IMG/VR virus record: IMGVR_UViG_3300048591_001211 | Coordinates: 1-61,923 of that record | Length of the DNA stretch: 61,923 nt | Strand: one strand, 5' to 3' | DNA from: a virus | Lineage: Duplodnaviria; Caudoviricetes | In this document: in pieces, positions 18,908 to 42,343 of the stretch | How positions within the stretch are numbered: the first letter of the stretch is position 1 | How the letters are laid out: every line of letters starts with the position of its first letter | Notes under the pieces: generated by a model | Told to the model about the DNA's origin: nothing | Seen by the model: the letters and a program-made list of their open reading frames with translations, nothing else | The model's database searches: none | Translations under genes and position numbers: made by a program

Positions 18908-19819
18908 ATGGAAGCGGTAGCGGAACAGATGGATCGTGACACGTGGCTGGCCGAGCGACGCAAGGGCATCGGCGGTTCGGACGTCGCGGCGATCCTTGGG
19001 CTGTCGAAGTGGACGTCACCAGTGGAGGTATGGCTCGACAAGCTCGGCCGTCTTCCACCGAAGGAAGAGACGCCTGCCATGCGGTGGGGAAGTCTCAAGG
19101 AGCCGCTTATCCTCGACGAGTTCAGCCGCGCGACGGGCATGGAGGTTCGCCGCGGCCTGCCGATGCAGGCGAGCGAGGATCACCCGTTCATGCTCGCCAC
19201 GATCGACGGCCTGGTGGAGGACCGCCAAGCGATCGTCGAGGCCAAGACAGCCATGTTCGCGGAGGGTTGGGGCGAGCCAGGTACCGCGGAAATCCCCGCG
19301 TATTACCTCACCCAGGTGACGCACTACATGGCCGTGACGGGGGCCGTGGTCGCCTTCGTTCCGGTGCTGATTGGGTCAAGCGACTTCCGCATCTATGAGG
19401 TCGAGCGTGACGAGTCGCTCATCGCGGACCTGGTCGAGGCCGAGCGTTCGTTCTGGTTCGATCACGTTCTCGCCGGTGTCGAGCCGGAGCCGGTGAGCAA
19501 GGAAGACGCGTTGCTCCTGTGGGCTCGCGACAACGGCACGACGGTGGACGTCGACGAGGACGTGGCCGCGGATGTGGAACGGCTCAAGGCCCTCAAGGCC
19601 GAGATCACGCTCCTCGAAGAGCGAGCTGCGTTGATCGATGACCGCGTTCGGATTGCGTTCCGTGAGGCGGCGCAGCTTCGTTTCAACGGCGAGGTGATCG
19701 CCACATACAAGGGCCAGGCGCGGAAGAGCCTGGACCAAAGGGCGATCGAAGCGGAGCACCCGTCGATCGTCGCGCAATACAAGCGGGAGTCGCTGTCGCG
19801 AGTCTTGCGGTTGAAGTGA
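18908..19819 (+). CDS. YqaJ-like viral recombinase / lambda-type exonuclease
   Basis: WLAERRKGIGGSDVAAILG, ATIDG, EAKT and Y..QV.HYM.VTG motifs. Confidence 0.92.
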   Translation: MEAVAEQMDRDTWLAERRKGIGGSDVAAILGLSKWTSPVEVWLDKLGRLPPKEETPAMRWGSLKEPLILDEFSRATGMEVRRGLPMQASEDHPFMLATIDGLVEDRQAIVEAKTAMFAEGWGEPGTAEIPAYYLTQVTHYMAVTGAVVAFVPVLIGSSDFRIYEVERDESLIADLVEAERSFWFDHVLAGVEPEPVSKEDALLLWARDNGTTVDVDEDVAADVERLKALKAEITLLEERAALIDDRVRIAFREAAQLRFNGEVIATYKGQARKSLDQRAIEAEHPSIVAQYKRESLSRVLRLK

Positions 19820-19856: not shown

Positions 19857-20975
19857 ATGAGCAGCGGCACAGAAGCATTGAAAGGCGAGTTGGTCAGCTT
19901 AGACGCGGTCGTGAATGACGCGCTGACGCAGATCACCAAAGCGGAGATCGACCAGCAGATTGCGACGGCCCACGCGTACCCGCGAAGCCTGTCGAAGTTC
20001 AAGAACCGAGCGCTCGAAATGGCGACGCTCGATGAAGAGACGGCCGAGTCATGCATCTATTCGCGGCCGGTCGGGAAAGGCCCAGACGGGAAGCAGAAGT
20101 TCGCGGAGGGCATGTCCATCCGCATGGCCGAGATCGTCGGCGCTTGCTTCGGGAACCTTCGGGTTGGGGCAACGCTGATCGAAATGACGCCTCGGTTCGT
20201 GAAGGCCCGCGGTTTCGCTCACGACCTGGAGACCAACTTCGCGAGCACGTCTGAGGTGGTCGAGTCGACTGTGAAGGCCAACGGGATGCCGTACGACGAG
20301 CGAATGCGGGTGGTCGTCGCAAAGGCGGCCCTCGCAAAGGCCCGCCGAGACGCGACGTTCCAGGTGGTCCCGAAAGCCCTGTGCAAGGCGATCGAAGCCG
20401 CTGCCAGGCAGGCCGCCATCGGGGGCGCGACGACGATCGGGAAGCGGCGAGACGCAGTCGCCGGCTGGGTGGCGAAGCTCGGCATCGAGCCGGCCCGCGT
20501 GTGGGCATCGCTCGGGGTTGCGGGTGCCGATGACCTGACGGTTGAGCACCTCACGACCCTGACCGGGGTGAAGACCGCGGTGAAGGATGGCGAGGTCACG
20601 CTTGACGAGGCATTCCCGCCGATCGCTGGCGAGGCTAGCCCGGCGGCTTCTGCCGTGAAGTCGGCCGCGAAGAAGGCCGTCGAGAAGTCGAAGGGCAAGC
20701 CGACGGTTGTGGACGCCCCGTCCGAGCCTGCAAAACCGGCCGAGACTCCACCGGAGAAAGCCGCTGATGCTTCGCCGGCACCAGGCGATGCGGCCGAGCC
20801 GACGGTCTACGAGGGAATCGAGCAGGCCATCATGCTCACGAAGGGGGAGCGATCGCTCGGCAAGATTCGCGACAACCTCGCGAACCACCTCGAGGCCGGA
20901 GCCATCACGGCCGAACAAGCCGATCACCACCGCGACCTCATTGCCGCAAGGCTGGAAAGTGAGGTGTCGGCATGA
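19857..20975 (+). CDS. Putative single-strand annealing / recombination protein
   Basis: Occupies the RecT position directly after YqaJ; folded-looking N-terminal domain plus an Ala/Pro-rich linker. Confidence 0.45.
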   Translation: MSSGTEALKGELVSLDAVVNDALTQITKAEIDQQIATAHAYPRSLSKFKNRALEMATLDEETAESCIYSRPVGKGPDGKQKFAEGMSIRMAEIVGACFGNLRVGATLIEMTPRFVKARGFAHDLETNFASTSEVVESTVKANGMPYDERMRVVVAKAALAKARRDATFQVVPKALCKAIEAAARQAAIGGATTIGKRRDAVAGWVAKLGIEPARVWASLGVAGADDLTVEHLTTLTGVKTAVKDGEVTLDEAFPPIAGEASPAASAVKSAAKKAVEKSKGKPTVVDAPSEPAKPAETPPEKAADASPAPGDAAEPTVYEGIEQAIMLTKGERSLGKIRDNLANHLEAGAITAEQADHHRDLIAARLESEVSA

Positions 20976-22318
20976 GCGGCAAACTCCACGTCAGCCACGT
21001 CCGAATCTCGAACATCCTCGGTATCGAGGAGCTCGAGTTTGCTCCTGGCGGGTTCACCGAGATCGTCGGCGCCAACGGGTCCGGCAAGACGAGCACGATC
21101 GAGGCCATTCGCTCAGCACTGCGCGGAGGGCATGACGCCACGCTGCTGCGAAAGGGTTCCGAAAAGGGCGAGATCGTTCTCGTTCTCGACGACGGATCGC
21201 AGATCACCAAGACCGTCACTCAGGACGCGACGAAGGTCAAGGTGCTCCGTGACGAGCGGCTGCTCTCGCGGACGGCGGAGGCGATCAAGGCCCTGCACGA
21301 CGTTCTCAGCGTCAACCCGGTCGAGTTCCTGCGGTCTCCGGAGAAGGCCCGCGTCGATGCCCTTCTCCAAGTCATGCCGATCGCCGTCGACGAGGAGCGT
21401 CTCTCGCGGATCGCCGGCGAGCTCGTGCAGCCGGGCGTCGGTCTCGACCAGATCGAGGCGACGAAAAAAGCCGTGTTCGACGAGCGGACCGGCTTGAGCC
21501 GGACGGCCCGCGATAAGGACGGGGCGATCAAGCAACTCCGGGCGACGCTGCCAGCGAACGTCCCGGACGCACCGGACACCGACGCGTCGCTCCTGGAGCA
21601 GATCAACGCTATCGACGCCGATCGGGACGCGAAGGTGGAGTCGATCGTTCAGGAGTCGTCGGCTTATCTCAAGGTCGTCGACGACACGATCACCGGGCTT
21701 CACGAGCGAATCCGTGAGATCGAGGAGGAGGCCCGGCGGAAGGTCTCGGAGGTCAACGAAGAGGTTGTCGATGCCAAGCGGCGGAAGGCGGAAGCCGTCT
21801 CGCGGTGTGATGCCGCGAAGGCCGAAGTGAGGGCCAAGCATTCCGAGGCCCGGGCCGTCATTCAAACGAAGCTCGACGGGATCAAGGCGGCCCACGAACA
21901 GCAGGCCAGGTACAAGCTGACCACCGAGAACATCAACCGGATGGCGGCCGAGCTTGAATCGATCAAGGACGATACCGAGAAGCTCACGGAGTCGCTCGAC
22001 GCGCTCGACGCCTACAAGGCCGAGCTACTGGCGAGCCTCCCGATACCTGGCCTGGAGGTCGTCGAAGGCCGGCTCCAGCGGTACGGCATCCCGTTCGACC
22101 GGCTGAACACGGCCCAACAGGTTGAGATCGCCGTGGAGATCGCGAAGCTCCGGGCCGGCGAGCTCGGGCTTATCTGCGTCGACGGGCTCGAGCTCCTCGA
22201 CCAGGAGCACTACGAGGCATTCCGCGAGCACGCGGCGGCATCGGGCCTGCAGCTGATCGTGTCGCGGGTCGGGGCCGGCGGGCTTGAGGTGAAGACCGAG
22301 GAGGCCGCCTATGCCTGA
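20972..22318 (+). CDS. SMC/Rad50-like coiled-coil ATPase
   Basis: N-terminal Walker A GANGSGKT, long coiled coil, degenerate signature LNTAQQ and Walker B ICVDG. Confidence 0.8.
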   Translation: MSGKLHVSHVRISNILGIEELEFAPGGFTEIVGANGSGKTSTIEAIRSALRGGHDATLLRKGSEKGEIVLVLDDGSQITKTVTQDATKVKVLRDERLLSRTAEAIKALHDVLSVNPVEFLRSPEKARVDALLQVMPIAVDEERLSRIAGELVQPGVGLDQIEATKKAVFDERTGLSRTARDKDGAIKQLRATLPANVPDAPDTDASLLEQINAIDADRDAKVESIVQESSAYLKVVDDTITGLHERIREIEEEARRKVSEVNEEVVDAKRRKAEAVSRCDAAKAEVRAKHSEARAVIQTKLDGIKAAHEQQARYKLTTENINRMAAELESIKDDTEKLTESLDALDAYKAELLASLPIPGLEVVEGRLQRYGIPFDRLNTAQQVEIAVEIAKLRAGELGLICVDGLELLDQEHYEAFREHAAASGLQLIVSRVGAGGLEVKTEEAAYA

Positions 22319-23417: not shown

Positions 23418-24025
23418 GCACAGCGACCGCCACCCGCGAGCGTCCAATCCTGTTCTCCGGGCCGATGGTCCGAGCGATCCTCGCCGGCCGGAAGACGCAG
23501 ACGCGGCGGATCGTGAGGCCGCGGCAGGTGCATGAAGGTATCAACATCTATTACGTGCCCAAGACGTGCCCGTATGGACGTGCGGGAGACCTTCTGTGGG
23601 TTCGTGAAACGTGGGCTCCGGTATCCACGTTCGATCCTTCTCCCGAGACGGGTGCTCTCTATCGAGCCGACCCGATGTATGACGGGATAGATCAATTCGA
23701 TTGGCCGTGGAAGCCATCGATCCACATGCCGCGCTGGGCTTCGCGCATCACGCTCGAAGTCACCGGCGTGCGAGTCGAGCGGCTGAACGACATCAGCGAG
23801 GAGGACGCGATCGCTGAGGGGTGCCAGGAGACGTACTGCTCTCCAGAGCTGACGGCTGAGTGCGAGCCAGGGACTCCGCAGAGGGAGTTGGCCGAGCTGC
23901 TTGAGGGCGGCTGGATCACTGCGAAAGGCAACTTCTCGTTCCTGTGGAATGAGATCAACGGCCCCGGCTCGTGGGCGGCGAACCCTTGGGTGTGGGTGGT
24001 CGAGTTCAGGAGGGTCAAGCAATGA
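23414..24025 (+). CDS. Conserved phage protein, ASCH/PUA-like
   Basis: ERPILFSGPMVRAILAGRKTQTRR, GD.LWVRETW, PSIHMPRWASRI and NPWVWVVEF motifs. Confidence 0.75.
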   Translation: MSTATATRERPILFSGPMVRAILAGRKTQTRRIVRPRQVHEGINIYYVPKTCPYGRAGDLLWVRETWAPVSTFDPSPETGALYRADPMYDGIDQFDWPWKPSIHMPRWASRITLEVTGVRVERLNDISEEDAIAEGCQETYCSPELTAECEPGTPQRELAELLEGGWITAKGNFSFLWNEINGPGSWAANPWVWVVEFRRVKQ

Positions 24026-24819
24026 GCTACACCCTCTGCCAAGGCGACTGCCTGACGTGGCTCCGGTCGATGGACACGTACAGCGTGGACCTGATTCTCG
24101 GATCGCCTCCCTACGAAGCGGCACGCACGTACGGGATCGGATTCGATCTCAAGGGGCAAGCGTGGGTCGATTGGATGGTGGAGCGGTGGGAGGAGTTTCA
24201 GCGTGTTTCGCGCGGGCTCGTCGTGATGGTCGTCGCGGGCCAAACACGGAAGTTCGAGTGGTCGGCAACGCCCGCGTTGCTCATGGCCGACCTTCACCGC
24301 GCGGGCTTCCCTCTGAGGACGCCGCCGATCTTCCGTCGCGTCGGCATACCGGGCAGCGGCGGGCCTGAATGGCTCAGAAACGATTACGAATTCTGCGTCG
24401 TCACCGGGAAGGCCGGCCGACTCGAATGGAGCGACAACACCGCGATGGGTGGCGAATGGAAGTATCCGTCGGGCGGCGGTTACTCGCACCGCAAGGCGGA
24501 CGGCACTCGTGTCAAGCGTGAGCGGAAGCCAGGGAGAGCGAACCCAGGCAACGTGATCGATTGCGGCGCTGCTGGCGGTGGCAACATCGGAAGCAAGCTC
24601 GCCCACGAAAACGAAGCCCCTTACCCCGAGCGACTGGCGGAGTTCTTCATCCGCTCGTTTTGTAAGCCAGGGGGCACGGTGCTCGACCCATTCTGCGGCA
24701 GCGGCACCACTCTCGCGGTCGCCCAAAGGCTCGGCCGCAACCCCATCGGGATCGACGTTCGCGAGTCGCAAATCGAGTTGACGCGACGCCGCATGGACGA
24801 AGTCGAGGCGGCAGCATGA
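24022..24819 (+). CDS. Orphan DNA methyltransferase (beta class, N4-C/N6-A)
   Basis: Catalytic SPPY near the N-terminus and SAM-binding VLDPFCGSGTT near the C-terminus. Confidence 0.88.
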   Translation: MSYTLCQGDCLTWLRSMDTYSVDLILGSPPYEAARTYGIGFDLKGQAWVDWMVERWEEFQRVSRGLVVMVVAGQTRKFEWSATPALLMADLHRAGFPLRTPPIFRRVGIPGSGGPEWLRNDYEFCVVTGKAGRLEWSDNTAMGGEWKYPSGGGYSHRKADGTRVKRERKPGRANPGNVIDCGAAGGGNIGSKLAHENEAPYPERLAEFFIRSFCKPGGTVLDPFCGSGTTLAVAQRLGRNPIGIDVRESQIELTRRRMDEVEAAA

Positions 24820-25274
24820 GCCACACCTACCAGGACGCTCAGTGCGATCTCCCGCTTCTCGGAGTCATTCGGAATGAGCAGCGACGAAACAGCGAGCCCT
24901 CCGCCGGTGATGGAGCGCAACAGGTGCAACGCGTTGAAGCCGGACACGCATCCTTGCGGCCGATGCGGATGCCCGGAGTTCCGCATTTTGCAGACGGCGG
25001 GCGGTCACGAGCTCGAGACCCGGGCACGTCTAAGTCCGCCGGCCGCACCGCAAAACTCGGCGGGCAGAAGCTCTCGGTCTGGCAGGCCCTCGGGCAAGGA
25101 CCAGCGGGGCAGACGGAGCTCGGGCGACGAACCGGTCTCCTGCCCCACCAGGTGAACAAGCGGCTTTCGGACCTCGAGCACGAGGGATGGGCCGCGCCTA
25201 CGGGGCGCGAGGTGCTCAACGAAGGCGGCCACATGGAACGTGAGTGGAGAAGGATCGAGGTGACGGATGGCTAG
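24816..25274 (+). CDS. Winged-HTH protein
   Basis: ARDPGTS..A and ELGRRTGL....VNKRLSDLE..G motifs. Confidence 0.55.
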   Translation: MSHTYQDAQCDLPLLGVIRNEQRRNSEPSAGDGAQQVQRVEAGHASLRPMRMPGVPHFADGGRSRARDPGTSKSAGRTAKLGGQKLSVWQALGQGPAGQTELGRRTGLLPHQVNKRLSDLEHEGWAAPTGREVLNEGGHMEREWRRIEVTDG

Positions 25275-26091
25275 GCGGAAAGACTCGATGCACATTCTCC
25301 CGCTCTTCTGCGATGACCTCATCGCGTCGACCGTGGACATGAGCGCTGCTTGCTTCGGGGCGTACATGCGGCTCCTGTGCTTCGCGTGGACGCGTGGCGG
25401 CCTGCCCGATAACGAGGCCGCATGCGCTCGGATCGCCGGTGGGATGAAGACGGAAGACTGGCGGCAGATCCGGGCGAGGCTCACCGTGCTCGAAGACGGT
25501 CGGCTGAGCCACGATCGCCTTGAGCGTGAGCGGGCAGCGGTTGCCGCACATTCTGCGAAGAAATCGGAGGCCGGGAAGAAAGGCAATGCGACCCGGTGGG
25601 GATCGCAAGAGCCATCGCAAACGGATCGCACAGCGATCGCAGAGCGATCGCAAACGGTATCGCAAGTCGATCCCAAAACGATCGCCCCATTCCCATTCCC
25701 TTTCCCAGAAGAAGAAAAACACTCCGCGCGCGCCTCGGCACCGCCGCCGAAAGCCTCGGAACCGGAGGACGAATTCCGCCGGCCGGGGTGGGTGCACGAC
25801 GAATGGGCGGCGATCGTTCCGGTCTGGAACGCGATCGAGCGGGCGGTCCCGTGGACCCACCTGAACCCGCCAAACGATTTCGCGGAGTTGGCGGCGTCCC
25901 CGGGCCGGATGGCCGACGTTCGCAAGGGGCTCGAGCTGCTGCCCGGGTGCGTCCGGTTTACGGAACCGGTGCCCTGGACCCAGTTCGTCCGCGAGCTCGA
26001 TCGGATCATCGCCCTGGAGTTCAGGACACCGCCGCGTGGCGATTCGGTCAGGGGGGCGCGGAAGCAACCAGTCGGAGGGAACATGCGATGA
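25267..26091 (+). CDS. Replication initiator-like protein (YdaU/DUF1376 family)
   Basis: PLFCDD...T..MS...GAYMRLL...W..GGLP and AGKKG...RW motifs; contains phased DNA repeats. Confidence 0.75.
   Translation: MARRKDSMHILPLFCDDLIASTVDMSAACFGAYMRLLCFAWTRGGLPDNEAACARIAGGMKTEDWRQIRARLTVLEDGRLSHDRLERERAAVAAHSAKKSEAGKKGNATRWGSQEPSQTDRTAIAERSQTVSQVDPKTIAPFPFPFPEEEKHSARASAPPPKASEPEDEFRRPGWVHDEWAAIVPVWNAIERAVPWTHLNPPNDFAELAASPGRMADVRKGLELLPGCVRFTEPVPWTQFVRELDRIIALEFRTPPRGDSVRGARKQPVGGNMR
25602..25686 (+). repeat. Eight phased ATCGCA-like repeats (putative iterons / phage origin)
   Basis: ATCGCA at 25602, 25614, 25625, 25636, 25647 and 25659, with variants at 25670 and 25681; spacing 11-12 bp. Confidence 0.7.
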
Positions 26092-33455: not shown

Positions 33456-34088
33456 ATGGCCACTCTCTACTTCAACGACGCGGAAGAGGACAGCGACGTA
33501 GCCACCCTAGAAAACTGGTGGGAGGACGCTGAATGCACAGTTCAGGCCGACGCGCTTCCGGGTGTCAATGATGACTGCATTTTCCTGGCGAGCGTCTATG
33601 TAAACAGCGGCGATCCGTTCGTGGTCGCGTCAGTTGACATGCAGGTCGAGTGGGGCGAGTTCGCCATCGACGCGACAGCTGGGCTTTTTTCGTTCAGCGG
33701 GGATGGCTGCGGTCCCGCGTTCGGCTTCACTATCAACGGCGACTGTGTGTTCAACGGCGAGGGTGGTGGTGCGTACGGAGCCATCATCAACGGCGACTGT
33801 GAGTTCAGTGGCGAGGGCGGCGTAAACTTCCACACCACCGTCAACGGCGACTGCGTGTTCAGCGGCGAGTTCACCAACAACGTAGGCACGATCAACGGCG
33901 ATTGCTATCTGCTGCATCCGACATCCGCGAATGGCAGCGTCGATCTAATCAACCCTACGTATAACACTGAGGGCTTCGTCAACGGTCGCGTCTTCCTTAT
34001 TCGTGGCTCGAACCTTTACGGCAAACCAACAGAGGGCTTCGTCGTCCCTCGCGGCATCAACGGCTCGTCGATCCTTGGAGTTATGTAG
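33456..34088 (+). CDS. Beta-helix repeat protein
   Basis: Four (I/V)NGDC repeats, three of them followed by xF(N/S)GE. Confidence 0.6.
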   Translation: MATLYFNDAEEDSDVATLENWWEDAECTVQADALPGVNDDCIFLASVYVNSGDPFVVASVDMQVEWGEFAIDATAGLFSFSGDGCGPAFGFTINGDCVFNGEGGGAYGAIINGDCEFSGEGGVNFHTTVNGDCVFSGEFTNNVGTINGDCYLLHPTSANGSVDLINPTYNTEGFVNGRVFLIRGSNLYGKPTEGFVVPRGINGSSILGVM

Positions 34089-34089
34089 C

Positions 34090-34422
34090 ATGAATCTTGC
34101 TAATCCTGTCTCGATCACGCCACCGTCACGCACCAAAAGGGACGGCACCACCAAGACATTCACGACGGTTGAAATCGACTCACTCGGCATCACGATCATC
34201 GACGACGTTGTTCGTCGGATTGCTCGGGTCAGTCTCATGGGTCGCAAGGATGGCCGGCCCGTTCGTTCGTTTCCGAAGCCGCTGACGCTCTGGGAAGGCG
34301 AGGCGTATGACGAGGCCGGAGACTACACCCAGGCCCAGGTCGAGGCCCGCGTCGCGGAGCTGCTCGGCAGCGATGCGTCGGCGAGCTTGACGGGGATGAT
34401 GCAACTGCCCGTGAGTGTGTGA
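34090..34422 (+). CDS. Hypothetical phage protein
   Basis: Coupled ORF containing LWEGEAYD.AGDYTQAQVEARV. Confidence 0.55.
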   Translation: MNLANPVSITPPSRTKRDGTTKTFTTVEIDSLGITIIDDVVRRIARVSLMGRKDGRPVRSFPKPLTLWEGEAYDEAGDYTQAQVEARVAELLGSDASASLTGMMQLPVSV

Positions 34423-34526
34423 CCCATGCCTGACGCCATGGAAGACCAGATCGCTGACGCCGTGGCGACCGGAAACCAACAACCATGAGCCACCCGCACC
34501 TCCAACGCCAGCTCGGCAAGTCGAGA

Positions 34527-34559
34527 TGAGCGACGGGATGGCCGCGGCCGCCTTAGGGT
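34527..34559 (+). promoter_or_regulatory. Putative phage late promoter, copy 2
   Basis: TGAGCGACGG-N17-TAGGGT. Confidence 0.65.
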
Positions 34560-34594
34560 GAAGGGGAGCACCTTCACCCACGAGGCTCGATCGA

Positions 34595-34915
34595 ATGCGT
34601 TCGCCGGCCGTCTCGAATCACTTCACCGATGCCAACGGCAACCCATCCGGTGGCACCACGTTCGGTCAAGGTTTTGCCATCGGGTGGCAGAACGGTCCGC
34701 TCGGTCGTGGCGAGGAGCGGAAGCAGCCAAACGGGGCGTTCATCGAGGACATCATCGCTGCGGCCAAGGATCGGCTGGAGTTCTACCAGGCGTCCAAGTT
34801 CGCCTGCGAAGCGAACGAGACAGCCATCGATCTCCTGGCTGCGGCCCTCGGTGTGCTGAACGCCCGCACGGCCGATCGCGAGAAGCGTGCCGTCGAGGGC
34901 ACACACGCCCCCTGA
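34595..34915 (+). CDS. Tad1-like anti-defence nucleotide sponge
   Basis: WQNGP...NG.F.EDII....DRL.FYQ...F.CEAN..A......AL..LN.RT.DR..R.VEGT parallels the recalled Tad1 pattern FQKG...DRL..FQ...F..REN..AL...EEAL......R..DR..R.V.GT. Confidence 0.75.
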   Translation: MRSPAVSNHFTDANGNPSGGTTFGQGFAIGWQNGPLGRGEERKQPNGAFIEDIIAAAKDRLEFYQASKFACEANETAIDLLAAALGVLNARTADREKRAVEGTHAP

Positions 34916-34927
34916 TCGCCCAACCAC

Positions 34928-35473
34928 ATGGCCATCGATATCAACATCGACCTCGGTTACGCACTTGCTGCCTGGGTGGTCGCCGACTTCCTCTCGGGTG
35001 TCGTGCATTGGATTGAGGACCGCTACGGTGACCCAGCATGGCCCGTCATCGGCCGTCACGTCATCGAGCCGAACATCCTCCACCATCGGGACCAGATGGC
35101 GTTCACCGCGGGTGGCTACTGGCAACGCAACTGGACCACGCTCGTGCCGGCGGCGGCTGCCGCCGGGATGGCGTGGCTGGCCGGCTCGGCATTCCTGGCG
35201 GTCACGTTCCTCATGCTCTCCCAGGCGAACGAGATCCATGCCTGGGCTCACCAGCGATGCGTGCGCCCGATCCGCGGTCTGCAGCTCATCGGCATTTTCC
35301 AATCACCGGAGCAGCACGCCGATCACCACCGGCGGCCGTTCGACCGGAACTACTGCACCATGAGCGACTGGCTCAACCCGTTGCTATCGCGCGCCGGCTT
35401 CTGGCCCGCCCTCGAGCTGCTGGTGGCGAGGGTCACCGGGCTATCGCCACGACCCGAAAGGCAGGTGGCTTGA
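34928..35473 (+). CDS. CarF/TMEM189/FAD4-family lipid desaturase
   Basis: ADFLSGVVHW.ED, HH, H.WAH and H..HH...NYC...W.N histidine boxes; TM helices. Confidence 0.85.
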   Translation: MAIDINIDLGYALAAWVVADFLSGVVHWIEDRYGDPAWPVIGRHVIEPNILHHRDQMAFTAGGYWQRNWTTLVPAAAAAGMAWLAGSAFLAVTFLMLSQANEIHAWAHQRCVRPIRGLQLIGIFQSPEQHADHHRRPFDRNYCTMSDWLNPLLSRAGFWPALELLVARVTGLSPRPERQVA

Positions 35474-36033
35474 TGCCGCGCAAGCTCCCTTACGTCAGCG
35501 TGCCGAAGCCCCGCCGCCGCCCCAGTGCCGCGGCCCGCGGGTACTGCAGTCGCAAGCATCGGGAGTGGCGGCTCGCTGTCCTGCGACGGGATGAGTGGAC
35601 ATGCCAGGATTGCGGCCGGGTCTGCACTGACAAGGCAGAGGCGCACGCTGACCACGTCAGCCCGATCGTGCAGGGGACTGACTACTGCGAGGACGGGTCC
35701 AGTAGGTACGACGTGCGGAACGGTAAGTGCCGCTGCATCCGATGCCACAGCCGCAAGACGCAAGCCGAGAACGCCGGAGGGAAACGAATTCCGGCCGACC
35801 CCAGGGGGGGCTTCCAAAGTTCCAAAGCCCCCACGAATCCAAACCACCTGCTTGCCGCACGCACGCGACCGGGAGTTTTCGAGGGGGGGGGGTCGAATTC
35901 GCAATCCCCGGGTGAAACGGCGTCTGGGGCCGTGCGGTGGCCCGTCGTTGTGGACCCTGCCATGCCACCCGATCGGCTCCTCGTCGGTGGTGTTTGGATT
36001 GCCCTTGGGGTGCCTGCCGGGGGTGTGGAGTGA
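35473..36033 (+). CDS. HNH endonuclease (packaging-associated)
   Basis: A.ARGY...WR..VL.RD...CQDC...ADH...C..CHSRKT. Confidence 0.85.
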   Translation: MPRKLPYVSVPKPRRRPSAAARGYCSRKHREWRLAVLRRDEWTCQDCGRVCTDKAEAHADHVSPIVQGTDYCEDGSSRYDVRNGKCRCIRCHSRKTQAENAGGKRIPADPRGGFQSSKAPTNPNHLLAARTRPGVFEGGGSNSQSPGETASGAVRWPVVVDPAMPPDRLLVGGVWIALGVPAGGVE

Positions 36034-36602
36034 GTACCGGGACGATCCGAAACCGCGTGGTGAGGCTGGCGAGCGTTCGTGCCGGCGACCTGGTGCCGAA
36101 CCCCAGGAACTGGCGGACGCACCCGGCCGGACAGGCCGCCGCGCTCCGTGGGATCCTCGCCGAGATCGGGTACGCGGACGCCCTGCTCGCGCGGGAGTTG
36201 CCGGATGGTCGGCTGATGCTGATCGACGGTCACCTGCGGGCCGAGACGACACCCGACCTTGAGGTGCCGGTCCTGGTCCTCGACCTGAACGAAGAGGAGG
36301 CTGACAAGCTGCTCCTGTCCCTTGACCCGCTCGCCGCGATGGCGGAGGCGAACGCAGAGGCGATCGGCGAGCTGCTCCGCGAGGTGGAAACAGGCAGCGA
36401 AGGGCTGCAGAAGATGTACGCCGGGATGGCAAAAGACGCTGGCCTTCTCGCCGATGCCGACGCGTCGAGCCCGCAAGAGTCGGACTTTCAATACGAGCAG
36501 CAGTACGGCGTCACCGTGGTGTGTCGCGACGAGAGGCACCAGCAGGAGATCTACGATCGCCTGACGTCCGAGGGGCTGGAGTGCAAGGTGGTGGTCGTAT
36601 GA
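36030..36602 (+). CDS. ParB/Srx N-terminal-like domain protein
   Basis: L.PNPRNWRTH and LIDGHLR motifs; small C-terminal domain YGV.V.C.DE..Q..IY..L..EG..C. Confidence 0.8.
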   Translation: MSTGTIRNRVVRLASVRAGDLVPNPRNWRTHPAGQAAALRGILAEIGYADALLARELPDGRLMLIDGHLRAETTPDLEVPVLVLDLNEEEADKLLLSLDPLAAMAEANAEAIGELLREVETGSEGLQKMYAGMAKDAGLLADADASSPQESDFQYEQQYGVTVVCRDERHQQEIYDRLTSEGLECKVVVV

Positions 36603-37711
36603 AAATCGCCGTCCGCAATCGGTGCTCCGACTTCAACTCGTACCGGGCCGCCCGCGTGAAAAGCCTCTTCAACGCGGAGAGCGGCTGCGACTTCACGCTC
36701 GACGCCGATCTCCCCATAGATGACAGCGATTGGAAACTCGGGCTTGTGGTAGGCCCGTCCGGCTCCGGCAAGACCTCGATCGGAAAGCAGATATTCGGCG
36801 ACGCCGGCGCGGTGTACGACCCGTCGGACTGGCCCGCGGACAAGCCGATCGTTGATGCGATTGCCCCTGGTGGCGACTTCGACGCGGTGACGGGCGCTCT
36901 TGCGTCTGTCGGGCTTGGAAGCGTTCCGGCGTGGTTGCGCCCGTTCCACGTTCTGTCGAACGGCGAGCGCTTTCGGGCGAACCTCGCTCGGCTCGTGTGC
37001 GAGGCACCGCCGAAGGTTGTGGTCGACGAGTTCACCTCGGTCGTGGACAGGCAAATAGCCAGGTTCGGTGCGCTGGCCTTCCAGAAGTCGTGGCGTCGAA
37101 CCGGCGGGAAGTGCGTGCTGCTCTCTTGTCACTACGACGTGATCGATTGGCTGGAGCCGGACTGGGTCTACGACACCTCAAGCGGCCAATACGCCGGGAG
37201 GCGTCTTTGGCGACGGCCAAAGTTCGACCTCGAGATATGGCAGACGGACAAGCGCTACTGGCACCTGTTTGAGCCGCATTACTATCTGAGGCTGCCATCG
37301 ATGATCGCGGCAACGTACTACGTCGGGTTCGTCGACGGGGAGCCCGTGTGCCACCTCGGGGTTTCCCCGAAGCTCGAGGTGGGAGGTATGCGCGCGAGTC
37401 GCATGGTCGTGATGCCCGAGTGGCAAGGGGCCGGCGTCGGTGTTCGCTTCTTGAACGAGGTGTGCCAAATGCAGATCGATGGCCGCGGCCCATACGGCCG
37501 TCGCCCGCGCTGCGTTTTCTTCCATACGTCGCACCCAGGCCTGTGCCACGCACTGCGCAAGTCGCCCGGCTGGAGGCAGGTGAGCGCGGTGCTCGCCGGC
37601 GGGAATAAGGCCAGGAGCCGGAGAAGCATGCAGAAGTCGGGAGCGGTCACTGCCGGTTACGGCGGCCACTTCCGCGCGGTCCAGGGTTTCAAGTATGTCG
37701 GCTGTGCCTAG
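36599..37711 (+). CDS. ABC-type ATPase fused to GNAT (Mom-like) acyltransferase
   Basis: Walker A GPSGSGKT, signature LSNGE, Walker B VVDEF and H-loop SCH; F.PHYY and GNAT motif A R.VV.PEWQGAGVG. Confidence 0.85.
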   Translation: MKIAVRNRCSDFNSYRAARVKSLFNAESGCDFTLDADLPIDDSDWKLGLVVGPSGSGKTSIGKQIFGDAGAVYDPSDWPADKPIVDAIAPGGDFDAVTGALASVGLGSVPAWLRPFHVLSNGERFRANLARLVCEAPPKVVVDEFTSVVDRQIARFGALAFQKSWRRTGGKCVLLSCHYDVIDWLEPDWVYDTSSGQYAGRRLWRRPKFDLEIWQTDKRYWHLFEPHYYLRLPSMIAATYYVGFVDGEPVCHLGVSPKLEVGGMRASRMVVMPEWQGAGVGVRFLNEVCQMQIDGRGPYGRRPRCVFFHTSHPGLCHALRKSPGWRQVSAVLAGGNKARSRRSMQKSGAVTAGYGGHFRAVQGFKYVGCA

Positions 37712-37712
37712 G

Positions 37713-38360
37713 ATGCGCCTCTACATATGCGGCCAGCGTGAGTTTGGCGCACGTGTCCTTCGGCTCGCCGTCGGCATGGGGCACGATGTCGTCGGCTGCT
37801 GCTGCCCGGTCGGAAACTCTAAGGGCGACGGGCCTGACCGCACGCGTGAGGCGGCAGGAGTTTTCGGGGTCCCTTGCATCCCGTCCGGAACGCTGACGCA
37901 CGACAAGGTTCCCGAAGGCGTTGACGCGATCGTCGCCGCGCACTCGCACGACTTCATCGGGCAGCGAACCCGCTACAGGGCGAGGTACGGAGCGTTCGGC
38001 TACCACCCGTCCCTACTCCCCAGGCACAGGGGCCGCGATGCAGTTCGCTGGACCGTGCGCATGCGAGACCCTATCGCCGGAGGATCCATTTACTGGCTGA
38101 ACGAGGTTATGGACGGAGGCCCGATCGCCGCTCAGGAATGGTGCTGGGTGTACGGCGATGACACGCCCGAGCGGCTTTGGAGGGAACGGCTGTTTCCGAT
38201 CGGGCTGTCGCTCATGGAGCGAGTCCTTTCCGACATCCCGCGGCACTTTGAAAACAAGGTCGCGCAGGACGAGAGGGCGGCCACCTTTGAGCCTTCGATG
38301 AGCCCACCGAGGGCATTCCGGCCGGACCTGCTTGGCATCCCGTTTCGTCACGCGTGCTAA
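37713..38360 (+). CDS. Formyltransferase (10-formyl-THF-dependent fold)
   Basis: GQ..FG, YHPSLLPRHRG, MDGGPI and LW...LFP.G motifs. Alternative start at 37695. Confidence 0.85.
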   Translation: MRLYICGQREFGARVLRLAVGMGHDVVGCCCPVGNSKGDGPDRTREAAGVFGVPCIPSGTLTHDKVPEGVDAIVAAHSHDFIGQRTRYRARYGAFGYHPSLLPRHRGRDAVRWTVRMRDPIAGGSIYWLNEVMDGGPIAAQEWCWVYGDDTPERLWRERLFPIGLSLMERVLSDIPRHFENKVAQDERAATFEPSMSPPRAFRPDLLGIPFRHAC

Positions 38361-38371
38361 GGGAGGAACCT

Positions 38372-38875
38372 ATGGGAAAGCGGGGTCCACCGCCAAAGCC
38401 CACGACGCTCAAAATCGCCAGCGGAAACGCGTCGAAGGAGAACCTCGACGACCGTGTGCGGCGCGAGCCTCGCCCGCACGATGGCGACATCGAGCCGCCG
38501 GTGTGGCTGACGGGAGCGGCCCTGGAGAAGTGGGGCGAGATGCTGCCCATCATCCAGGGCATGAAGGTGATGACGTCGGCGGACGTTGACGCCCTGGGTC
38601 GGTACTGCGTGCTTCACGAGATGTACGTGAAGTACCTCGACCAATGCCGTCGCGGCCTCGATGTGCTCGTGCTCCGCGATGCGAACGGGAAGGTCAAGTA
38701 CATGCAGAGCACGCCGGCCGCGGTGATGTTCCAGAAGCTCGGCCAGCAACTTGACCGCCTTGGTCAGCAGTTCGGCCTGACACCTTCTTCTCGCACGGCG
38801 ATCAACGTGGACCACGGGGAGACAGCTGACAGTGTCCGAGCTTGGCTGGACGAGACGACTCTGGACGCCGGATGA
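38372..38875 (+). CDS. terS: Terminase small subunit, P27 family
   Basis: RGP.PKPT.LK...GN, PP.WL...A...W and FGLTPSSR motifs. Confidence 0.9.
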   Translation: MGKRGPPPKPTTLKIASGNASKENLDDRVRREPRPHDGDIEPPVWLTGAALEKWGEMLPIIQGMKVMTSADVDALGRYCVLHEMYVKYLDQCRRGLDVLVLRDANGKVKYMQSTPAAVMFQKLGQQLDRLGQQFGLTPSSRTAINVDHGETADSVRAWLDETTLDAG

Positions 38876-40448
38876 GCAACGACTGCGGCCCGAGTTCCTC
38901 GACGGCTACGTCTGGAACGGCAAGGCGGCTGAGCGGGCGTGCCAATTCATCGAGCGGTTTTGCCGGCTTCCCGGCAAGACTCGGTGGGGCTCGCCTGTTC
39001 GGCTTATGCGGTGGCACGCCGACGAGGTGTTCTACCCTTTGATCGGGTGGGAACGCCCGGACGGCAGGCGACGGTTCCGACGAGGCGGGCTTTTCGTCCC
39101 GAAGAAGAACACGAAGAGCAGTCTCACGAGCTGGCTGACCACGTTCTTCATGACCGCCGACTTCCCGCTCACAGACGTGTTCGGAGCGGCTACGGACCGC
39201 AACCAGGCGAAGATCATTTTCAACATGGTGGCCCGCTCGATCCAGAAGAGCCCCGCGCTTTCTCAGATCCTCACTGTCGTCAAAAGCTCCTCGACGATCG
39301 TCAATAAGGAGCACGGCAACGAGTACCGATGCCTTTCCTCCGACTCGTGGAGGCAGGAAGGCTTGAACGGAAAGGTCGTGATCGACGAGATTCACGCCCA
39401 CCGATCACACGACCTGATCGACGCGCTGGTCTACGCAAATCGAGCCACGCCAAACGGCCTCGTGCTCGGGATATCCACGGCCGGTTCCGAGCGGTCCGGA
39501 GTCGGCTGGCAGTGGTGGCAAGACTGTGAGATCGTGTCGCGTGAGCCTGAGGCAATTCCGAACTTCTACGGGAAAATCTACGCGGCCAAGGATACCGACG
39601 ACTTTAGCGACCCCGCGTTGTGGAGACGCGTCAACCCGTGCATGGGCGTCACGTTCCCGGAGGACGAGTTCGCCGACGACTACAAGGACGCTCTAACCGA
39701 CCCGCGGAAGATGGCCCGCTTCTTGCGGTACAGCCTGAACGTGTGGTGCGCCGCCGACAGCCGCTGGATACCGCCCGAAGAGTGGGCCGCCTGCTACATC
39801 GCCGAGATGCTGCTCGCGGACAAGGCCGAGTGCTGGATCGGCGTGGACCTCGCGTGGTCGGAGGACACGACCGCCGTCGTGGCGATTTTCCCGGACAAGA
39901 AAGGCGGTTTCGACGTGTGGTGCCGCATCTACCTACCAGAGGAATTGGTCGACGATCGCGAGCGACGGGATCGTTGTGAGTACCGACAATGGGCCGAAGA
40001 CGGCTTTGTCATTCTGACGCCTGGCGCCGTCACGGACTACGACTTCATCCGACGCGACATCGAAGCGCTTAACCGCAAATACACCATCAAGATGATCGCG
40101 GTCGACCCACACAACGCGACGCACATCACCAACCAACTTGATGGTGCAGGCCTGCCTGTGAAGAAGTACCCGCAAAGCTACGCGGGGATGAACGCTCCGT
40201 GCCGGTTGATCGAGACGCTGATCTCCAAACGAGCGATCCGACACACGTCTCCAGCGCTAAGCCGGCAAATGGGTAACGTCGCCGTCAAGATGAACGCGGA
40301 AGGTCTCATCCGTCCGCTCAAGCCGAAGCTTAACTCCCCGCTTCGAGTCGACGGACCGCTCGCGATGTGCATGGCCTTCGGTGCTTGGAGCGAAACGGGG
40401 CAGGAGCCGGAGAAGCCCAAGGTTCGCCCGAGGATTCACGCGCTATGA
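38832..40448 (+). CDS. terL: Terminase large subunit (HK97 / 3'-cos type)
   Basis: R.FR...VPKKNTKS Walker A, IDEIH Walker B, ISTAG, GVDLA...D and C-terminal VDG nuclease residues. Confidence 0.95.
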   Translation: MSELGWTRRLWTPDEQRLRPEFLDGYVWNGKAAERACQFIERFCRLPGKTRWGSPVRLMRWHADEVFYPLIGWERPDGRRRFRRGGLFVPKKNTKSSLTSWLTTFFMTADFPLTDVFGAATDRNQAKIIFNMVARSIQKSPALSQILTVVKSSSTIVNKEHGNEYRCLSSDSWRQEGLNGKVVIDEIHAHRSHDLIDALVYANRATPNGLVLGISTAGSERSGVGWQWWQDCEIVSREPEAIPNFYGKIYAAKDTDDFSDPALWRRVNPCMGVTFPEDEFADDYKDALTDPRKMARFLRYSLNVWCAADSRWIPPEEWAACYIAEMLLADKAECWIGVDLAWSEDTTAVVAIFPDKKGGFDVWCRIYLPEELVDDRERRDRCEYRQWAEDGFVILTPGAVTDYDFIRRDIEALNRKYTIKMIAVDPHNATHITNQLDGAGLPVKKYPQSYAGMNAPCRLIETLISKRAIRHTSPALSRQMGNVAVKMNAEGLIRPLKPKLNSPLRVDGPLAMCMAFGAWSETGQEPEKPKVRPRIHAL

Positions 40449-42343
40449 TCTCCCGCAACGCTATCTCGGTGCCGCGCATCCGTTCGTTTGGTCAAGCCTC
40501 CCGGCGATCGGCGGACAACCAAGACGTCAAGCGGTGGATTGACGAGGACGACGACTTCGGGATCTCGTCTGCCGGTGTGCGAGTGACCGAGAAAACGGCG
40601 ATGCGGACGGCCGCGTTCTTCTCGTGCACCCGCGTTGTTGGCGAAACGATGGGGGTTCTCGACCTCCATCACTACCGCCGGATCGAAGGCGGCGGATCGC
40701 TGCGAGAGCCGGGCTGGATCGACGATCTGCTTTCGACCTCGATACACCCGTCGCTCACGCGAAGCGAATGGTTCGAGCGGATGGTGACGAACTTCGAATT
40801 GTGGGGGGCGTGCTACGCGCGTCTCATTCAAGGACCGGACGGGACCATCATGGCCCTTGATCCGCTGCATCCGACGCAAGTCCGATGCGTTCCTATGCGG
40901 AACGGCGAGCTGGCGTTCGATGTGGTTCACGATGACGGTTCGACCGGAATCTACGGCCAGGAGGACATGTTCTGGATGCACTTCATGCCGGTCACCAATC
41001 GGTTTGGAGAGCGAAAGGGGCAACCACTTCTGGAGCTCGGCCGCGACACGATAGCGCTGTGCCGGGCGATGGAGAGGCACGCCAGCAAGTTCTTCTCGAA
41101 CGGCGCCAGGCCCGGCGTCATCATCGAGACGGACCTCGAGCTCTTGGACGAGGACATCGTGTCGCTGCGCGATGCGTGGGAGCGAATTCATCGTGGCCCG
41201 GAGAATTCCAACCGCACGGCGGTCATGGATCGCGGGATCAAGGCCCGGGAGTTTGGTGCCGCCAGCAACCAGGACTCACAGTTCACCGAGGCGCTGGAGT
41301 TCGAAACAGGCCGCGTCTGCGCGATTATGCGCGTTCCTCCGCACATGGTTCAGCTGTTCTCTAATCTCAAGTACGCGACCGTCGAACAGGGGGCAATCGA
41401 TTTTCGGAACTACACCATCGGCCCGCGGGCGAATCGCTTCGAGCAGGCGTTTGTCCGCAGCCTGGTCCTCGACCCGTCGACCCACTTCGTTCGGTTCAAC
41501 CTCGACGAGCTCGAGCGTGGCGATGCAACGTCCCGCATGGGTGTCTCGAAGGATGGGGTGTCCACCGGCATCACGTGCGTCAACGAGGAGCGAGCCAAAG
41601 ACGGCAGGAACCCGGTAGCCGGCGGCGACGTGCACCTTGTGCCGGCGAACTACACCACGCTGGAGGCGCTGGCCAGGCGACAGGCCGCGAACCCAGAGAA
41701 CATCGAGCCGGTGCTCGATCGCCTTGCCGCTGGTGGCATTTCACCGGATGCGGCCCGCGTGCTGCTCTCGGTCCAGAATCCGATGCTGTCCGCGGAAGAG
41801 GTTACCGCCATCGTTGCCGGAACCGTTCCTGGGGCGCAGCCTGACAAGCCGCAGGTGACGACGCTTCTCCAAGTCATCGACGATATCGCGACCGGGAAGC
41901 TCACGAGCCACGGGGCGCGGGCCGTTCTCGCCGTTGCGTTCCCGCAGCTCGACAAGCAACTCGTGGACGAGATGGTCGGTGGGGTGAAGGTCATCACCGT
42001 GGATGCGGTGCACGAGCCCGAGCCGCTGGCCGCACCGTCTGCACCAGAGTCGGCCGAGCCGGCGGCGGAAGACCAGGCCACGCCGGAGACCATCGGTGGG
42101 GTGGACGTGGCCTCGCTAGCGCTCAATGGGGCGCAGGTCACAGCGTTGCTGGAGGTCGTGCGGCAGATTTCCGAAGGCACGATCACGAAGGAAGCCGCAA
42201 CGCTGGTCATCACTTCGGCGTTCCCGACGATCCCCGAAGAGGTCGCCTCGCGTATGGCCGACGGTGCAATTGCCAAGCCGATCGAAGAACCGGCGCCAAT
42301 CGAAACCGCTCCGCCCACCGATAACCAGGAGGCCCAGCCATGA
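40445..42343 (+). CDS. HK97-family portal protein with C-terminal repeat extension
   Basis: PLHP, FF.NGARP.., QF.E, VPPHM and NEER motifs; extra tail of about 200 aa. Confidence 0.93.
   Translation: MISRNAISVPRIRSFGQASRRSADNQDVKRWIDEDDDFGISSAGVRVTEKTAMRTAAFFSCTRVVGETMGVLDLHHYRRIEGGGSLREPGWIDDLLSTSIHPSLTRSEWFERMVTNFELWGACYARLIQGPDGTIMALDPLHPTQVRCVPMRNGELAFDVVHDDGSTGIYGQEDMFWMHFMPVTNRFGERKGQPLLELGRDTIALCRAMERHASKFFSNGARPGVIIETDLELLDEDIVSLRDAWERIHRGPENSNRTAVMDRGIKAREFGAASNQDSQFTEALEFETGRVCAIMRVPPHMVQLFSNLKYATVEQGAIDFRNYTIGPRANRFEQAFVRSLVLDPSTHFVRFNLDELERGDATSRMGVSKDGVSTGITCVNEERAKDGRNPVAGGDVHLVPANYTTLEALARRQAANPENIEPVLDRLAAGGISPDAARVLLSVQNPMLSAEEVTAIVAGTVPGAQPDKPQVTTLLQVIDDIATGKLTSHGARAVLAVAFPQLDKQLVDEMVGGVKVITVDAVHEPEPLAAPSAPESAEPAAEDQATPETIGGVDVASLALNGAQVTALLEVVRQISEGTITKEAATLVITSAFPTIPEEVASRMADGAIAKPIEEPAPIETAPPTDNQEAQP

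Follow-up and report, generated by a model that had tools for sequence, protein, structure and literature searches.

Organization of the cassette

We examined a linear viral record of 61,923 bases (Duplodnaviria; Caudoviricetes; IMG/VR record IMGVR_UViG_3300048591_001211), estimated to be about half complete and referred to at its full length as the window, with a focus on three contiguous genes located just upstream of the gene for the terminase small subunit (terS). The first gene of this cassette (36030-36602, + strand) starts with GTG and encodes a protein of 190 amino acids (aa) that combines a ParB-like N-terminal domain (ParB-N), assigned with phrog_498, phrog_620 and the family profile A3, with a small C-terminal domain that we call smallC (36477-36599, +; residues ~150-190; phrog_28816, alignments A1 and A3). 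The second gene (36599-37711, +), present in a single copy in the window, encodes a 370-aa fusion (ABC-GNAT) of an ABC-type ATPase domain (36599-37198, +; residues 1-~200; Pfam ABC_tran, profile A2 against PDB) and a GNAT acyltransferase domain (37211-37711, +; residues ~205-370; a coenzyme A (CoA)-binding motif and a weak Pfam GNAT match). The third (37713-38360, +) encodes a single-domain formyltransferase of 215 aa (Formyl_trans_N) of the type found at the N-terminus of ALDH1L1, the 10-formyl-tetrahydrofolate (10-formyl-THF) dehydrogenase (FDH).

The three genes are tightly coupled. The TGA stop of the upstream HNH endonuclease gene lies within a GTGA whose GTG, at 36030, is the start of the ParB-like gene; an ATGA overlap (36599-36602) couples this gene to the ABC-GNAT gene; and a single base separates the ABC-GNAT stop from the formyltransferase ATG at 37713. 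The gene terS begins 11 bases 3' of the cassette. A preliminary description, made from the letters of the sequence, had placed three tightly coupled genes between HNH and terS, and the coordinates confirm it. The motifs it named were also found, with GQREFG, YHPSLLPRHRG and LFPIG in the formyltransferase and HYY (residues 227-229) and QGAGVG (276-281) in the GNAT domain. A promoter and terminator scan of positions 34000-40500 gave no signal above shuffled sequences.

Conservation of the three-gene module

Two sets of loci, both biased toward near kin of the window protein, were used to follow the arrangement: a viral set of 84 loci (4 phage records and the best 80 of 167 IMG/VR relatives) and a genome set of 80 loci (the best 80 of at least 590 confirmed relatives). 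The smallC domain was encoded directly upstream of ABC-GNAT in 74 of 81 testable viral loci and in 78/80 genome loci. Five of the seven other viral loci carried it a few hundred bases further upstream, and two (L071 and L072) had none. The formyltransferase gene was directly downstream of ABC-GNAT in 72 of 75 testable viral loci and in 62/78 genome loci; among the viral exceptions, L067 and L076 lacked it, and L015 had one that was split off by the distance rule. With the same order of genes found again in 84 viral and 80 genomic loci, the arrangement is far beyond chance, and the early proposal that the genes form one cassette held in this survey of neighborhoods.

Searches of 50,697 phage records with tblastn recovered ABC-GNAT in 77 and the formyltransferase in 31. 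In the Mu-like Burkholderia phage phiE255 a 54-aa protein, ABC-GNAT and the formyltransferase follow a tail-fiber assembly gene, an arrangement that is repeated in Pseudomonas phage Komp_PAO1_1. At the genome end of Porphyromonas phages there are genes for a 42-aa protein, ABC-GNAT and the formyltransferase, and in Gordonia phages genes 1-3 (ParB-like, ABC-like and formyltransferase) precede the terminase. Separate genes encode the ABC and GNAT domains in Streptococcus, Lactococcus and Oenococcus phages, after the ParB-like gene and just 5' of terS. Streptococcus phage records use the label 'DNA modification methylase' for the ParB-like gene and 'ABC iron siderophore transporter' for the ABC gene, and domain content supports neither name.

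Natural fusions link the same components. ParB-N-smallC is fused to ABC-GNAT in nine proteins of about 570-620 aa and in P0282 and P0284, and full-length ABC-GNAT is fused to full-length formyltransferase in P0299 and P0300. The last four are single-member clusters (with four member sequences in the case of P0282), and gene-calling read-through is possible for them. These fusions, which join both pairs of neighbors, support a single machine. By gene order, translational coupling and natural fusions, the trio is one conserved functional module. Its core is smallC, with or without ParB-N, together with ABC-GNAT; the third enzyme is accessory, since the third gene is swappable or absent among relatives.

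The ABC-GNAT family is very large: a saturated search with 8,000 scored candidates yielded over 7,800 clusters at 90% identity. A library clustered at 50% identity contained 3,039 clusters with E<=0.001, of which 1,502 reached E<=1e-10 and 551 reached E<=1e-30. An Atlas search returned same-family clusters only. At least 590 species genomes carry proteins with 55-68% identity to that of the window, and the genomes listed belong to Verrucomicrobiota, Planctomycetota, Pseudomonadota, Bacteroidota, Bacillota, Chloroflexi, Acidobacteriota, Gemmatimonadota and other phyla. Cultured phages with ABC-GNAT include those of Gordonia, Pseudomonas, Streptococcus, Lactococcus, Porphyromonas, Aeromonas and Leptospira.

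The ParB-like protein and smallC

The single sequence of the ParB-like protein had no match in Pfam. In PHROGs it matched phrog_498, the N-terminal part of phage DNA methyltransferases (8e-12), and phrog_620, a ParB-like family (6.5e-11). The family profile A3 recovered from PDB the N-domains of Noc (1.9e-11), ParB (3.4e-11) and Spo0J (5.5e-11) as well as sulfiredoxin (0.009), and the Jace and P335 relatives matched ParB_N at 1.4e-5 and 1.7e-9. The ParB fold assumed at the outset is thus recovered with the family profile (at about 1e-11), not with the single sequence in Pfam, and profile and relatives together assign the protein to the ParB/Srx N-terminal domain family (PF02195). At the box II arginine motif (GxxR) the window protein has DGHLR, the family consensus being AGHGR, and the Asn of the family ADN motif is replaced by Pro. 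Traits of chromosome-segregation ParB were not found: Pfam detected no helix-turn-helix (HTH) family in the protein and no ParA-like gene is adjacent.

The smallC domain, which occupies the last 40 residues (150-190), follows the consensus Y.EQYGVIV.C.DE..Q...Y..L...G..CKVVV. It matches phrog_28816 (54 aa, no known function) at 3.7e-11, and profile A3 found no solved relative of it in PDB. In Mu-like and Porphyromonas phages smallC is a stand-alone protein of 40-55 aa. The upstream proteins consequently fall into two size classes, about 185-200 aa (ParB-N and smallC) or 40-55 aa (smallC alone).

Two known systems are comparable on the side of this partner. Post-replicative thymine dioxygenases depend for their activation on phage ParB-like proteins that lack an HTH, and these proteins co-occur with terminases (PMC13229309). 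In this 5mYOX system the adjoining ParB-like protein likewise has a nucleotide-binding domain at its N-terminus and a small domain at its C-terminus, often lies near terminases, and is required for activity (PMC13229309). However, the enzyme of the cassette is ABC-GNAT, and its partner is often reduced to smallC alone. The fusions of ParB-N with DNA methyltransferases in phrog_498 match the ParB-N of the cassette and, as the cassette, are typically located just upstream of packaging genes, but the catalytic module of the cassette is a separate ATPase-acyltransferase and not a fused S-adenosylmethionine-dependent methyltransferase.

The ABC-GNAT protein

ABC-GNAT matches phrog_11143 (no known function) at 2e-146. 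Its N-terminal half scores 25.6 bits with ABC_tran (cut-off 25) and carries the motifs of an ABC ATPase: Walker A GPSGSGKT, signature LSNGE, Walker B VVVDE and the H-loop CHYD. In 88 diverse sequences G55, G57, K58, L119, S120, G122 and D143 are invariant, and E144 and H178 nearly so. Profile A2 recovered transporter-type ABC nucleotide-binding domains from PDB, with E values of 1e-18 to 1e-12, and the sole match in PADLOC was to the ABC motif (mad3, 1e-7).

The transporter-type character of this domain agrees with a suggestion made in 2010 for gp29 of phiE255 (PMC2920897), according to which the gene would be a moron, an ABC transporter ATPase that helps the lysogen to import or export a compound. 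We regard this explanation as highly improbable. No permease or substrate-binding gene was found in the neighborhood of the window cassette (whose neighbors encode an HNH endonuclease, a lipid desaturase, terS and the terminase large subunit, terL), in the annotated phage loci, or adjacent to ABC-GNAT in any locus examined; the ATPase is fused to a GNAT domain; and the family is mostly viral and found in lytic phages too. The preliminary description had already noted the lack of a permease and had read the protein as a soluble ABC ATPase fused to a GNAT, and the domain content and the neighbors uphold both points.

The GNAT domain of the window protein falls below Pfam cut-offs (18.6 vs 27 and 16.2 vs 20.7 bits); relatives pass them, an example being Jace gp86 with 35.9 vs 20.7 bits for Acetyltransf_1. 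The domain contains QGAGVG as its CoA-binding motif, with R268, V270, P273, Q276, G277 and G279 invariant in the 88 sequences, and it belongs with the GNAT acyltransferases. A GNAT-only profile had weak matches in PDB, made through the CoA-binding motif, to Naa50 (0.0074), SSAT2 (0.015) and NAT10 (0.022). Several residues near the GNAT motifs are fixed differently between the two clades described below (H252/F, R265/M, E274/D, the FHTS 308-311 segment and L319/Y), a pattern in the alignment that would fit different donors.

A relationship to the Mom protein of phage Mu, a DNA adenine modifier with the GNAT fold, had been proposed from 'Mom-like' motifs and did not withstand comparison of the sequences. 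QGxGxG is the generic CoA-binding motif of GNATs and HYY is H-H-Y in most members; hhalign gave a probability of 0.2% for the family profile against Mu Mom, BLASTP an E value of 1.3, and Mom was absent from the PDB matches of the GNAT-only profile at E<=10. At the level of sequence, homology to Mom was therefore rejected. There are likenesses of another kind, as both are phage-encoded enzymes of the GNAT superfamily expressed with late genes, and the phiE255 cassette is located after the tail-fiber genes, where com-mom lies in Mu. Recurrence of the cassette at the Mu mom position, suggested earlier as a check, was thus found in phiE255. Mom is a single enzyme that uses Gly-tRNA. The GNAT of the cassette, in contrast, keeps its CoA-binding motif, is fused to an ABC domain, has a ParB/smallC partner gene and travels with enzymes of CoA thioesters.

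The RNA cytidine acetyltransferases TmcA and NAT10 offer a second comparison. They also join an ATPase to a GNAT domain and acylate cytosine N4 from acyl-CoA, a chemistry that the cassette may share. However, the ATPase of the cassette is of ABC type and not of helicase type, DUF1726 and tRNA-binding domains are absent, and the partner is ParB-N. The cassette enzyme does not belong to the TmcA/NAT10 family, the sole link being the weak match to the GNAT motif of NAT10.

Two further observations concern ABC-GNAT homologues. Inteins (Hint and LAGLIDADG; PF14890) interrupt P0183 and P0281. P0287, a single metagenomic protein of 1,075 aa, consists of a 3'-5' exonuclease, DNA polymerase A and a C-terminal ABC-GNAT, and represents either a fusion or a read-through.

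The formyltransferase and the swappable third gene

The third protein of the window cassette is a member of the Formyl_trans_N family (PF00551; 55.9 bits vs cut-off 26.1, 5.9e-15) and matches phrog_9240 at 2.3e-47. The best match among solved structures was the FDH N-domain (1s3i, 3e-21, end-to-end), with Fmt (3tqq, 2.5e-9) and PurN (3p9x, 2.8e-7) behind, in line with the earlier assessment that the enzyme is nearer to the ALDH1L1 type than to Fmt. The catalytic residues His98 and Asp134, which align to H106 and D142 of FDH, are conserved in 100% of 85 homologues; YHPSLLPRHRG is identical to that of FDH; and the Asn of the N-x-H motif is absent, as in FDH. Identity with Fmt was rejected, given a score of 48.8 bits against a cut-off of 201.5 for TIGR00460 (NCBIfam fmt) and a protein that ends after the catalytic domain, and PurN was rejected with a score below its NCBIfam cut-off. 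Judged by its domains, the protein resembles ALDH1L1/FDH at the domain level and is not a member of that enzyme family: it is a stand-alone N-domain without a carrier, aldehyde dehydrogenase or enoyl-CoA-hydratase domain. HypX was not among the 59 PDB matches of the formyltransferase at E<=1.

A large cellular family (P0301-P0418) of ~380-aa proteins, in which ACT domains are joined to a formyltransferase domain, shares 40-44% identity with the phage formyltransferase and is nearer to it than any solved structure; no named function was found for this family. In Gordonia phage Axumite (L002), gene 3, and in its relatives, the formyltransferase is labeled 'tRNA-methyltransferase', a name that domain content does not support.

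Other phages carry a different third gene. Jace, a Rhodococcus/Gordonia phage, and 18 related loci encode, after ParB-smallC and ABC-GNAT, a 225-aa protein that corresponds to the N-terminal part of class-III CoA-transferases (PF02515, 2e-8; weakly, fatty-acyl-CoA racemase in PDB, 0.007). An aspartate decarboxylase gene (PF02261, 2e-33) lies between ABC-GNAT and the CoA-transferase-like gene in 15 of these 19 loci. In L089-L094 and L101 the order is ParB-smallC, ABC-GNAT, aspartate decarboxylase, CoA-transferase-like and a second ABC-GNAT.

In a tree of 167 distinct ABC-GNAT sequences, the type of third gene follows the phylogeny. The 131 formyltransferase-linked loci are placed in one clade, together with about 19 scattered members without formyltransferase, and the 19 CoA-transferase-linked loci form its sister clade. 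Three formyltransferase-less loci of the main clade (L141, L193 and L203) have terS and terL directly after ABC-GNAT. Six deep loci (L114, L116, L122-L124 and L129) present ABC-GNAT without detectable ParB/smallC, ahead of an ORF (open reading frame) of ~840-880 aa. In L114, the sole locus of this group that was scanned, the long downstream ORF is a family B DNA polymerase and a pyruvoyl-type S-adenosylmethionine decarboxylase (PF02675, 2.5e-16) is encoded upstream. Other neighbors in the deeper branches include a Dam-type methylase or a primase Zn-ribbon.

Genomic context and the nature of the acceptor

In four cassette types, genes of ASCH proteins adjoin the cassette at its 3' edge. They are co-directional in L085 (Streptococcus phage Javan141), in L121 and in L166, L172 and L173 of the formyltransferase clade, and convergent, directly after the CoA-transferase-like gene, in Jace (L087/L088), L103, L105 and L106; in L063 the ASCH gene lies about 650 bases downstream. 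All ASCH matches are at the 3' edge, although the flanks span 5-6 kb on both sides. Two of these proteins matched in PDB the ASCH domain of ASC-1 at about 1e-8. ASCH proteins such as YqfB are N4-acylcytosine amidohydrolases (PMC6972931, PMC12707154), and 19/19 tested ASCH proteins removed ac4C from tRNA (bioRxiv 10.64898/2026.02.27.708502).

This last result bears on the possibility that the cassette acylates RNA, most likely cytidine N4 of host or phage tRNA in the manner of TmcA, in order to tune translation or escape tRNA-targeting defenses, with ASCH proteins as erasers. TmcA and NAT10 join an ATPase to a GNAT domain and make ac4C (PMC13219725), NAT10 is among the top weak matches of the GNAT-only profile, and the formyltransferase shares its fold with Fmt. 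We nevertheless hold an RNA acceptor to be unlikely. The ATPase is ABC-type as opposed to the helicase type of TmcA, the formyltransferase is without the tRNA-binding domain that Fmt has at its C-terminus and scores far below the fmt cut-off, the constant partner is ParB-N, whose nearest phage kin are N-domains of DNA methyltransferases, and the other neighbors are DNA enzymes.

Free nucleotides or small amines are a somewhat less probable target still. Here the cassette would N4-acylate CTP or dCTP bound by the ParB fold, or else packaging polyamines, and the third enzymes would be metabolic helpers. In its favor, many proteins use the ParB-N fold to bind CTP, ATP or GTP (PMC12704722), free N4-acylcytidines are substrates of YqfB-type ASCH enzymes (PMC6972931), the weak GNAT matches include spermidine/diamine acetyltransferases, and two of the neighboring enzymes, aspartate decarboxylase and S-adenosylmethionine decarboxylase, make small amines. 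However, it is not obvious why a GNAT acting on small molecules should require an ABC ATPase clamp whose ATPase site is invariant, or a fused or coupled ParB-smallC partner, and there is no consistent linkage to a nucleotide kinase or polymerase.

In many lineages the cassette is followed by terminase genes, and the terS families vary. Among 70 distinct downstream ORFs, recognizable families were Terminase_4 (6), Terminase_2 (5), GpA (4), Phage_terminase (2), TerL (1), Terminase_3 (1) and Terminase_6C (1), and 7 to 12 more were HTH-type proteins, possibly terS. HNH as a constant neighbor was rejected, since only 4 HNH, 4 HNH_5 and 1 HNH_3 matches (counts that may overlap) occurred among 74 distinct upstream ORFs. 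The HNH and terS flanks described initially hold for the window; in relatives HNH is upstream in few loci, and a terminase recognizable with Pfam makes up a minority of the distinct downstream ORFs.

This association with packaging genes raises the question of whether the cassette could be a packaging or anti-defense accessory, one that acylates a protein (terminase, portal, nucleoid or host defense) or handles DNA mechanically in an SMC-ParB-like fashion and leaves bases unmodified. Several lineages have terminase genes adjoining the cassette, the GNATs characterized so far mostly acetylate proteins or small molecules, the best of the weak matches to the GNAT domain is Naa50, and the small partner in Porphyromonas phages was annotated 'acr candidate' by its depositors. 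We judge this improbable, and slightly more so than a small-molecule target. Because the adjoining terminase families differ (Terminase_4, Terminase_2, GpA) and many loci have none, one fixed protein partner is unlikely, and the swappable acyl-donor enzymes and the ASCH neighbors would be left unexplained.

A proposed mechanism

We propose, with a probability of roughly 45%, that the cassette is an ATP-dependent, acyl-CoA-using nucleobase N-acyltransferase that acts on phage DNA, in which the ParB-smallC protein activates the enzyme and the formyltransferase supplies formyl-CoA. We infer acceptor, donor and biological role from context and precedent. The ParB-N/smallC protein would bind the enzyme on DNA and activate it, in the manner of the ParB-like activators of phage thymine dioxygenases, and the ABC domain would then spend ATP to clamp on, or open, nucleic acid. 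The GNAT domain would move the acyl group from acyl-CoA to an exocyclic base amine, with cytosine N4 as our best guess, and the third gene would supply or set the donor. In the window, an FDH/HypX-like formyltransferase would transfer the formyl group of 10-formyl-THF to the thiol of CoA, giving formyl-CoA and an N-formyl mark. The donor of cassettes with aspartate decarboxylase and the CoA-transferase-like protein would probably be beta-alanyl-CoA, and perhaps plain acetyl-CoA where there is no accessory enzyme. Expressed with late and packaging genes, the system would mark phage DNA before packaging and allow it to escape host nucleases; the probable role of the module is to protect phage DNA.

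A role of the third enzyme in donor supply is suggested by the CoA-binding motif that GNAT keeps and by the fact that both accessory enzyme families handle thioesters of CoA or phosphopantetheine. The retention of His98 and Asp134 in the formyltransferase, without the N-x-H Asn or a C-terminal domain, points in the same direction. In FDH, the formyl group of 10-formyl-THF is passed to the 4'-phosphopantetheine on the carrier domain; in HypX, formylation of CoA from N10-formyl-THF has been proposed for the FDH-like N-domain; and the class-III CoA-transferases have formyl-CoA transferase as their type member (PMC6802093). By analogy, the cassette formyltransferase may form formyl-CoA.

A base amine of a nucleic acid is the most likely acceptor, given the ParB-N partner, the precedent of ParB-dependent dioxygenases, those of Mom and TmcA, and the ASCH neighbors. 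Mom acylates an exocyclic base amine in double-stranded DNA and TmcA uses acetyl-CoA to acylate cytosine N4 (PMC13219725). The choice of cytosine N4 is suggested by the ASCH neighbors, and that of DNA is consistent with a ParB-N nearest to N-domains of phage DNA methyltransferases and with the ASCH, DNA methylase and DNA polymerase genes nearby.

A number of points weigh against this proposal. The case for DNA as acceptor is drawn from context and precedent. The ParB-like protein has no DNA-binding HTH recognizable with Pfam, the GNAT domain has no detectable sequence similarity to Mom, and the deepest ABC-GNAT branch is without detectable ParB/smallC. An N-formyl amide would be labile. Pfam recognizes a terminase in only about 20 of the 70 distinct downstream ORFs. 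The formyltransferase is missing in 16/78 genome loci and in 2 of 75 viral loci, and is therefore not essential to the core. It might, to judge from its relatives, only adjust folate pools, since the closest cellular proteins, those with ACT domains, could be hydrolases. Acyl groups on adenine N6 were calculated to be unstable (PMC13219725). Finally, published ASCH activities are on tRNA and free nucleosides (PMC6972931; bioRxiv 10.64898/2026.02.27.708502), so that an RNA or nucleotide target is equally compatible with the ASCH neighbors.

A bolder version of the DNA N-acyltransferase proposal, which we put forward as doubtful but still likelier than an RNA acceptor, sees in the cassette the first acyl-CoA-dependent, ATP-driven writer of N-acyl DNA marks, phage-spread over most bacterial phyla, with N4-formyl- or N4-acyl-deoxycytidine as the likeliest product and ASCH proteins as erasers. 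The ParB/smallC activator would switch on the ABC-ATPase-GNAT enzyme, and interchangeable donor modules, either the formyltransferase (formyl-CoA) or aspartate decarboxylase with the CoA-transferase (beta-alanyl-CoA), would decide which group is written.

Flanking genes and other features of the window

All genes between 35.4 and 40.5 kb are on the + strand. Upstream of the cassette, the HNH endonuclease gene (35473-36033, +) matches Pfam HNH at residues 44-97 (E 5e-4) and phrog_589 at residues 11-118 (E 5e-19). The HNH domain is confined to the first ~105 residues of this ORF, and its 3' third (about 35790-36033; the last ~80 codons) has no HNH similarity. This segment could hold the cos site, since in Gordonia phages the first base of the genome is also the first of the ParB-like gene. 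It contains a run of nine G residues, at about 35883-35891. Downstream, terS (38372-38875, +; Pfam Terminase_4, 8.8e-16) has a GGAGG ahead of its start and overlaps terL (38832-40448, +; Pfam TerL_ATPase and TerL_nuclease), after which comes the portal gene.

Directly 5' of the HNH gene lies a gene for a lipid desaturase domain protein (34928-35473, +; PF10520, 1.4e-42; also FA_hydroxylase), a membrane-lipid enzyme that is unusual in a phage late region. Elsewhere in the same virus there are genes for a YqaJ recombinase-type exonuclease at 18908-19819 and an SMC/RecF-like ATPase at 20972-22318, followed by those for a separate N6/N4 DNA methyltransferase at 23971-24819 and a DUF1376 protein at 25267-26091. 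Two giant ORFs with coding-like GC content at third codon positions (GC3) are found at the left of the record, one of 2,514 aa (82-7626, +) and one of 1,961 aa (9103-14988, -).

Significance

Our literature search found no paper that assigns a function to the cassette. The only direct mention found was a 2010 description of phiE255, in which gp28-gp30 are genes of unknown role and a transporter is suggested (PMC2920897). An ABC-GNAT partner is not mentioned in the main texts of the survey of ParB-CTPases (PMC12704722) and of the ParB-dioxygenase paper (PMC13229309), the supplements of which may list the association. The ABC-GNAT family is very large and strongly conserved, yet no assigned function was found for it in print. 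Post-replicative nucleic-acid modification with a ParB-type activator is of a known kind; the architecture of the enzyme and its probable chemistry are without a characterized example.

If the cassette writes acyl marks on DNA, these would represent a new chemical class of phage DNA modification, and the role newly found for ParB-like proteins as activators of DNA-modifying enzymes would be extended. ABC-GNAT would also be a candidate writer for N4-acylcytosine in DNA, 4acC having been reported in plant DNA (PMC8722123). On the practical side, such marks would bear on sequencing artifacts and restriction-resistant phage DNA and could provide new DNA-labeling enzymes. Even with tRNA or a nucleotide as target, the swappable donor modules make the system tractable and testable.

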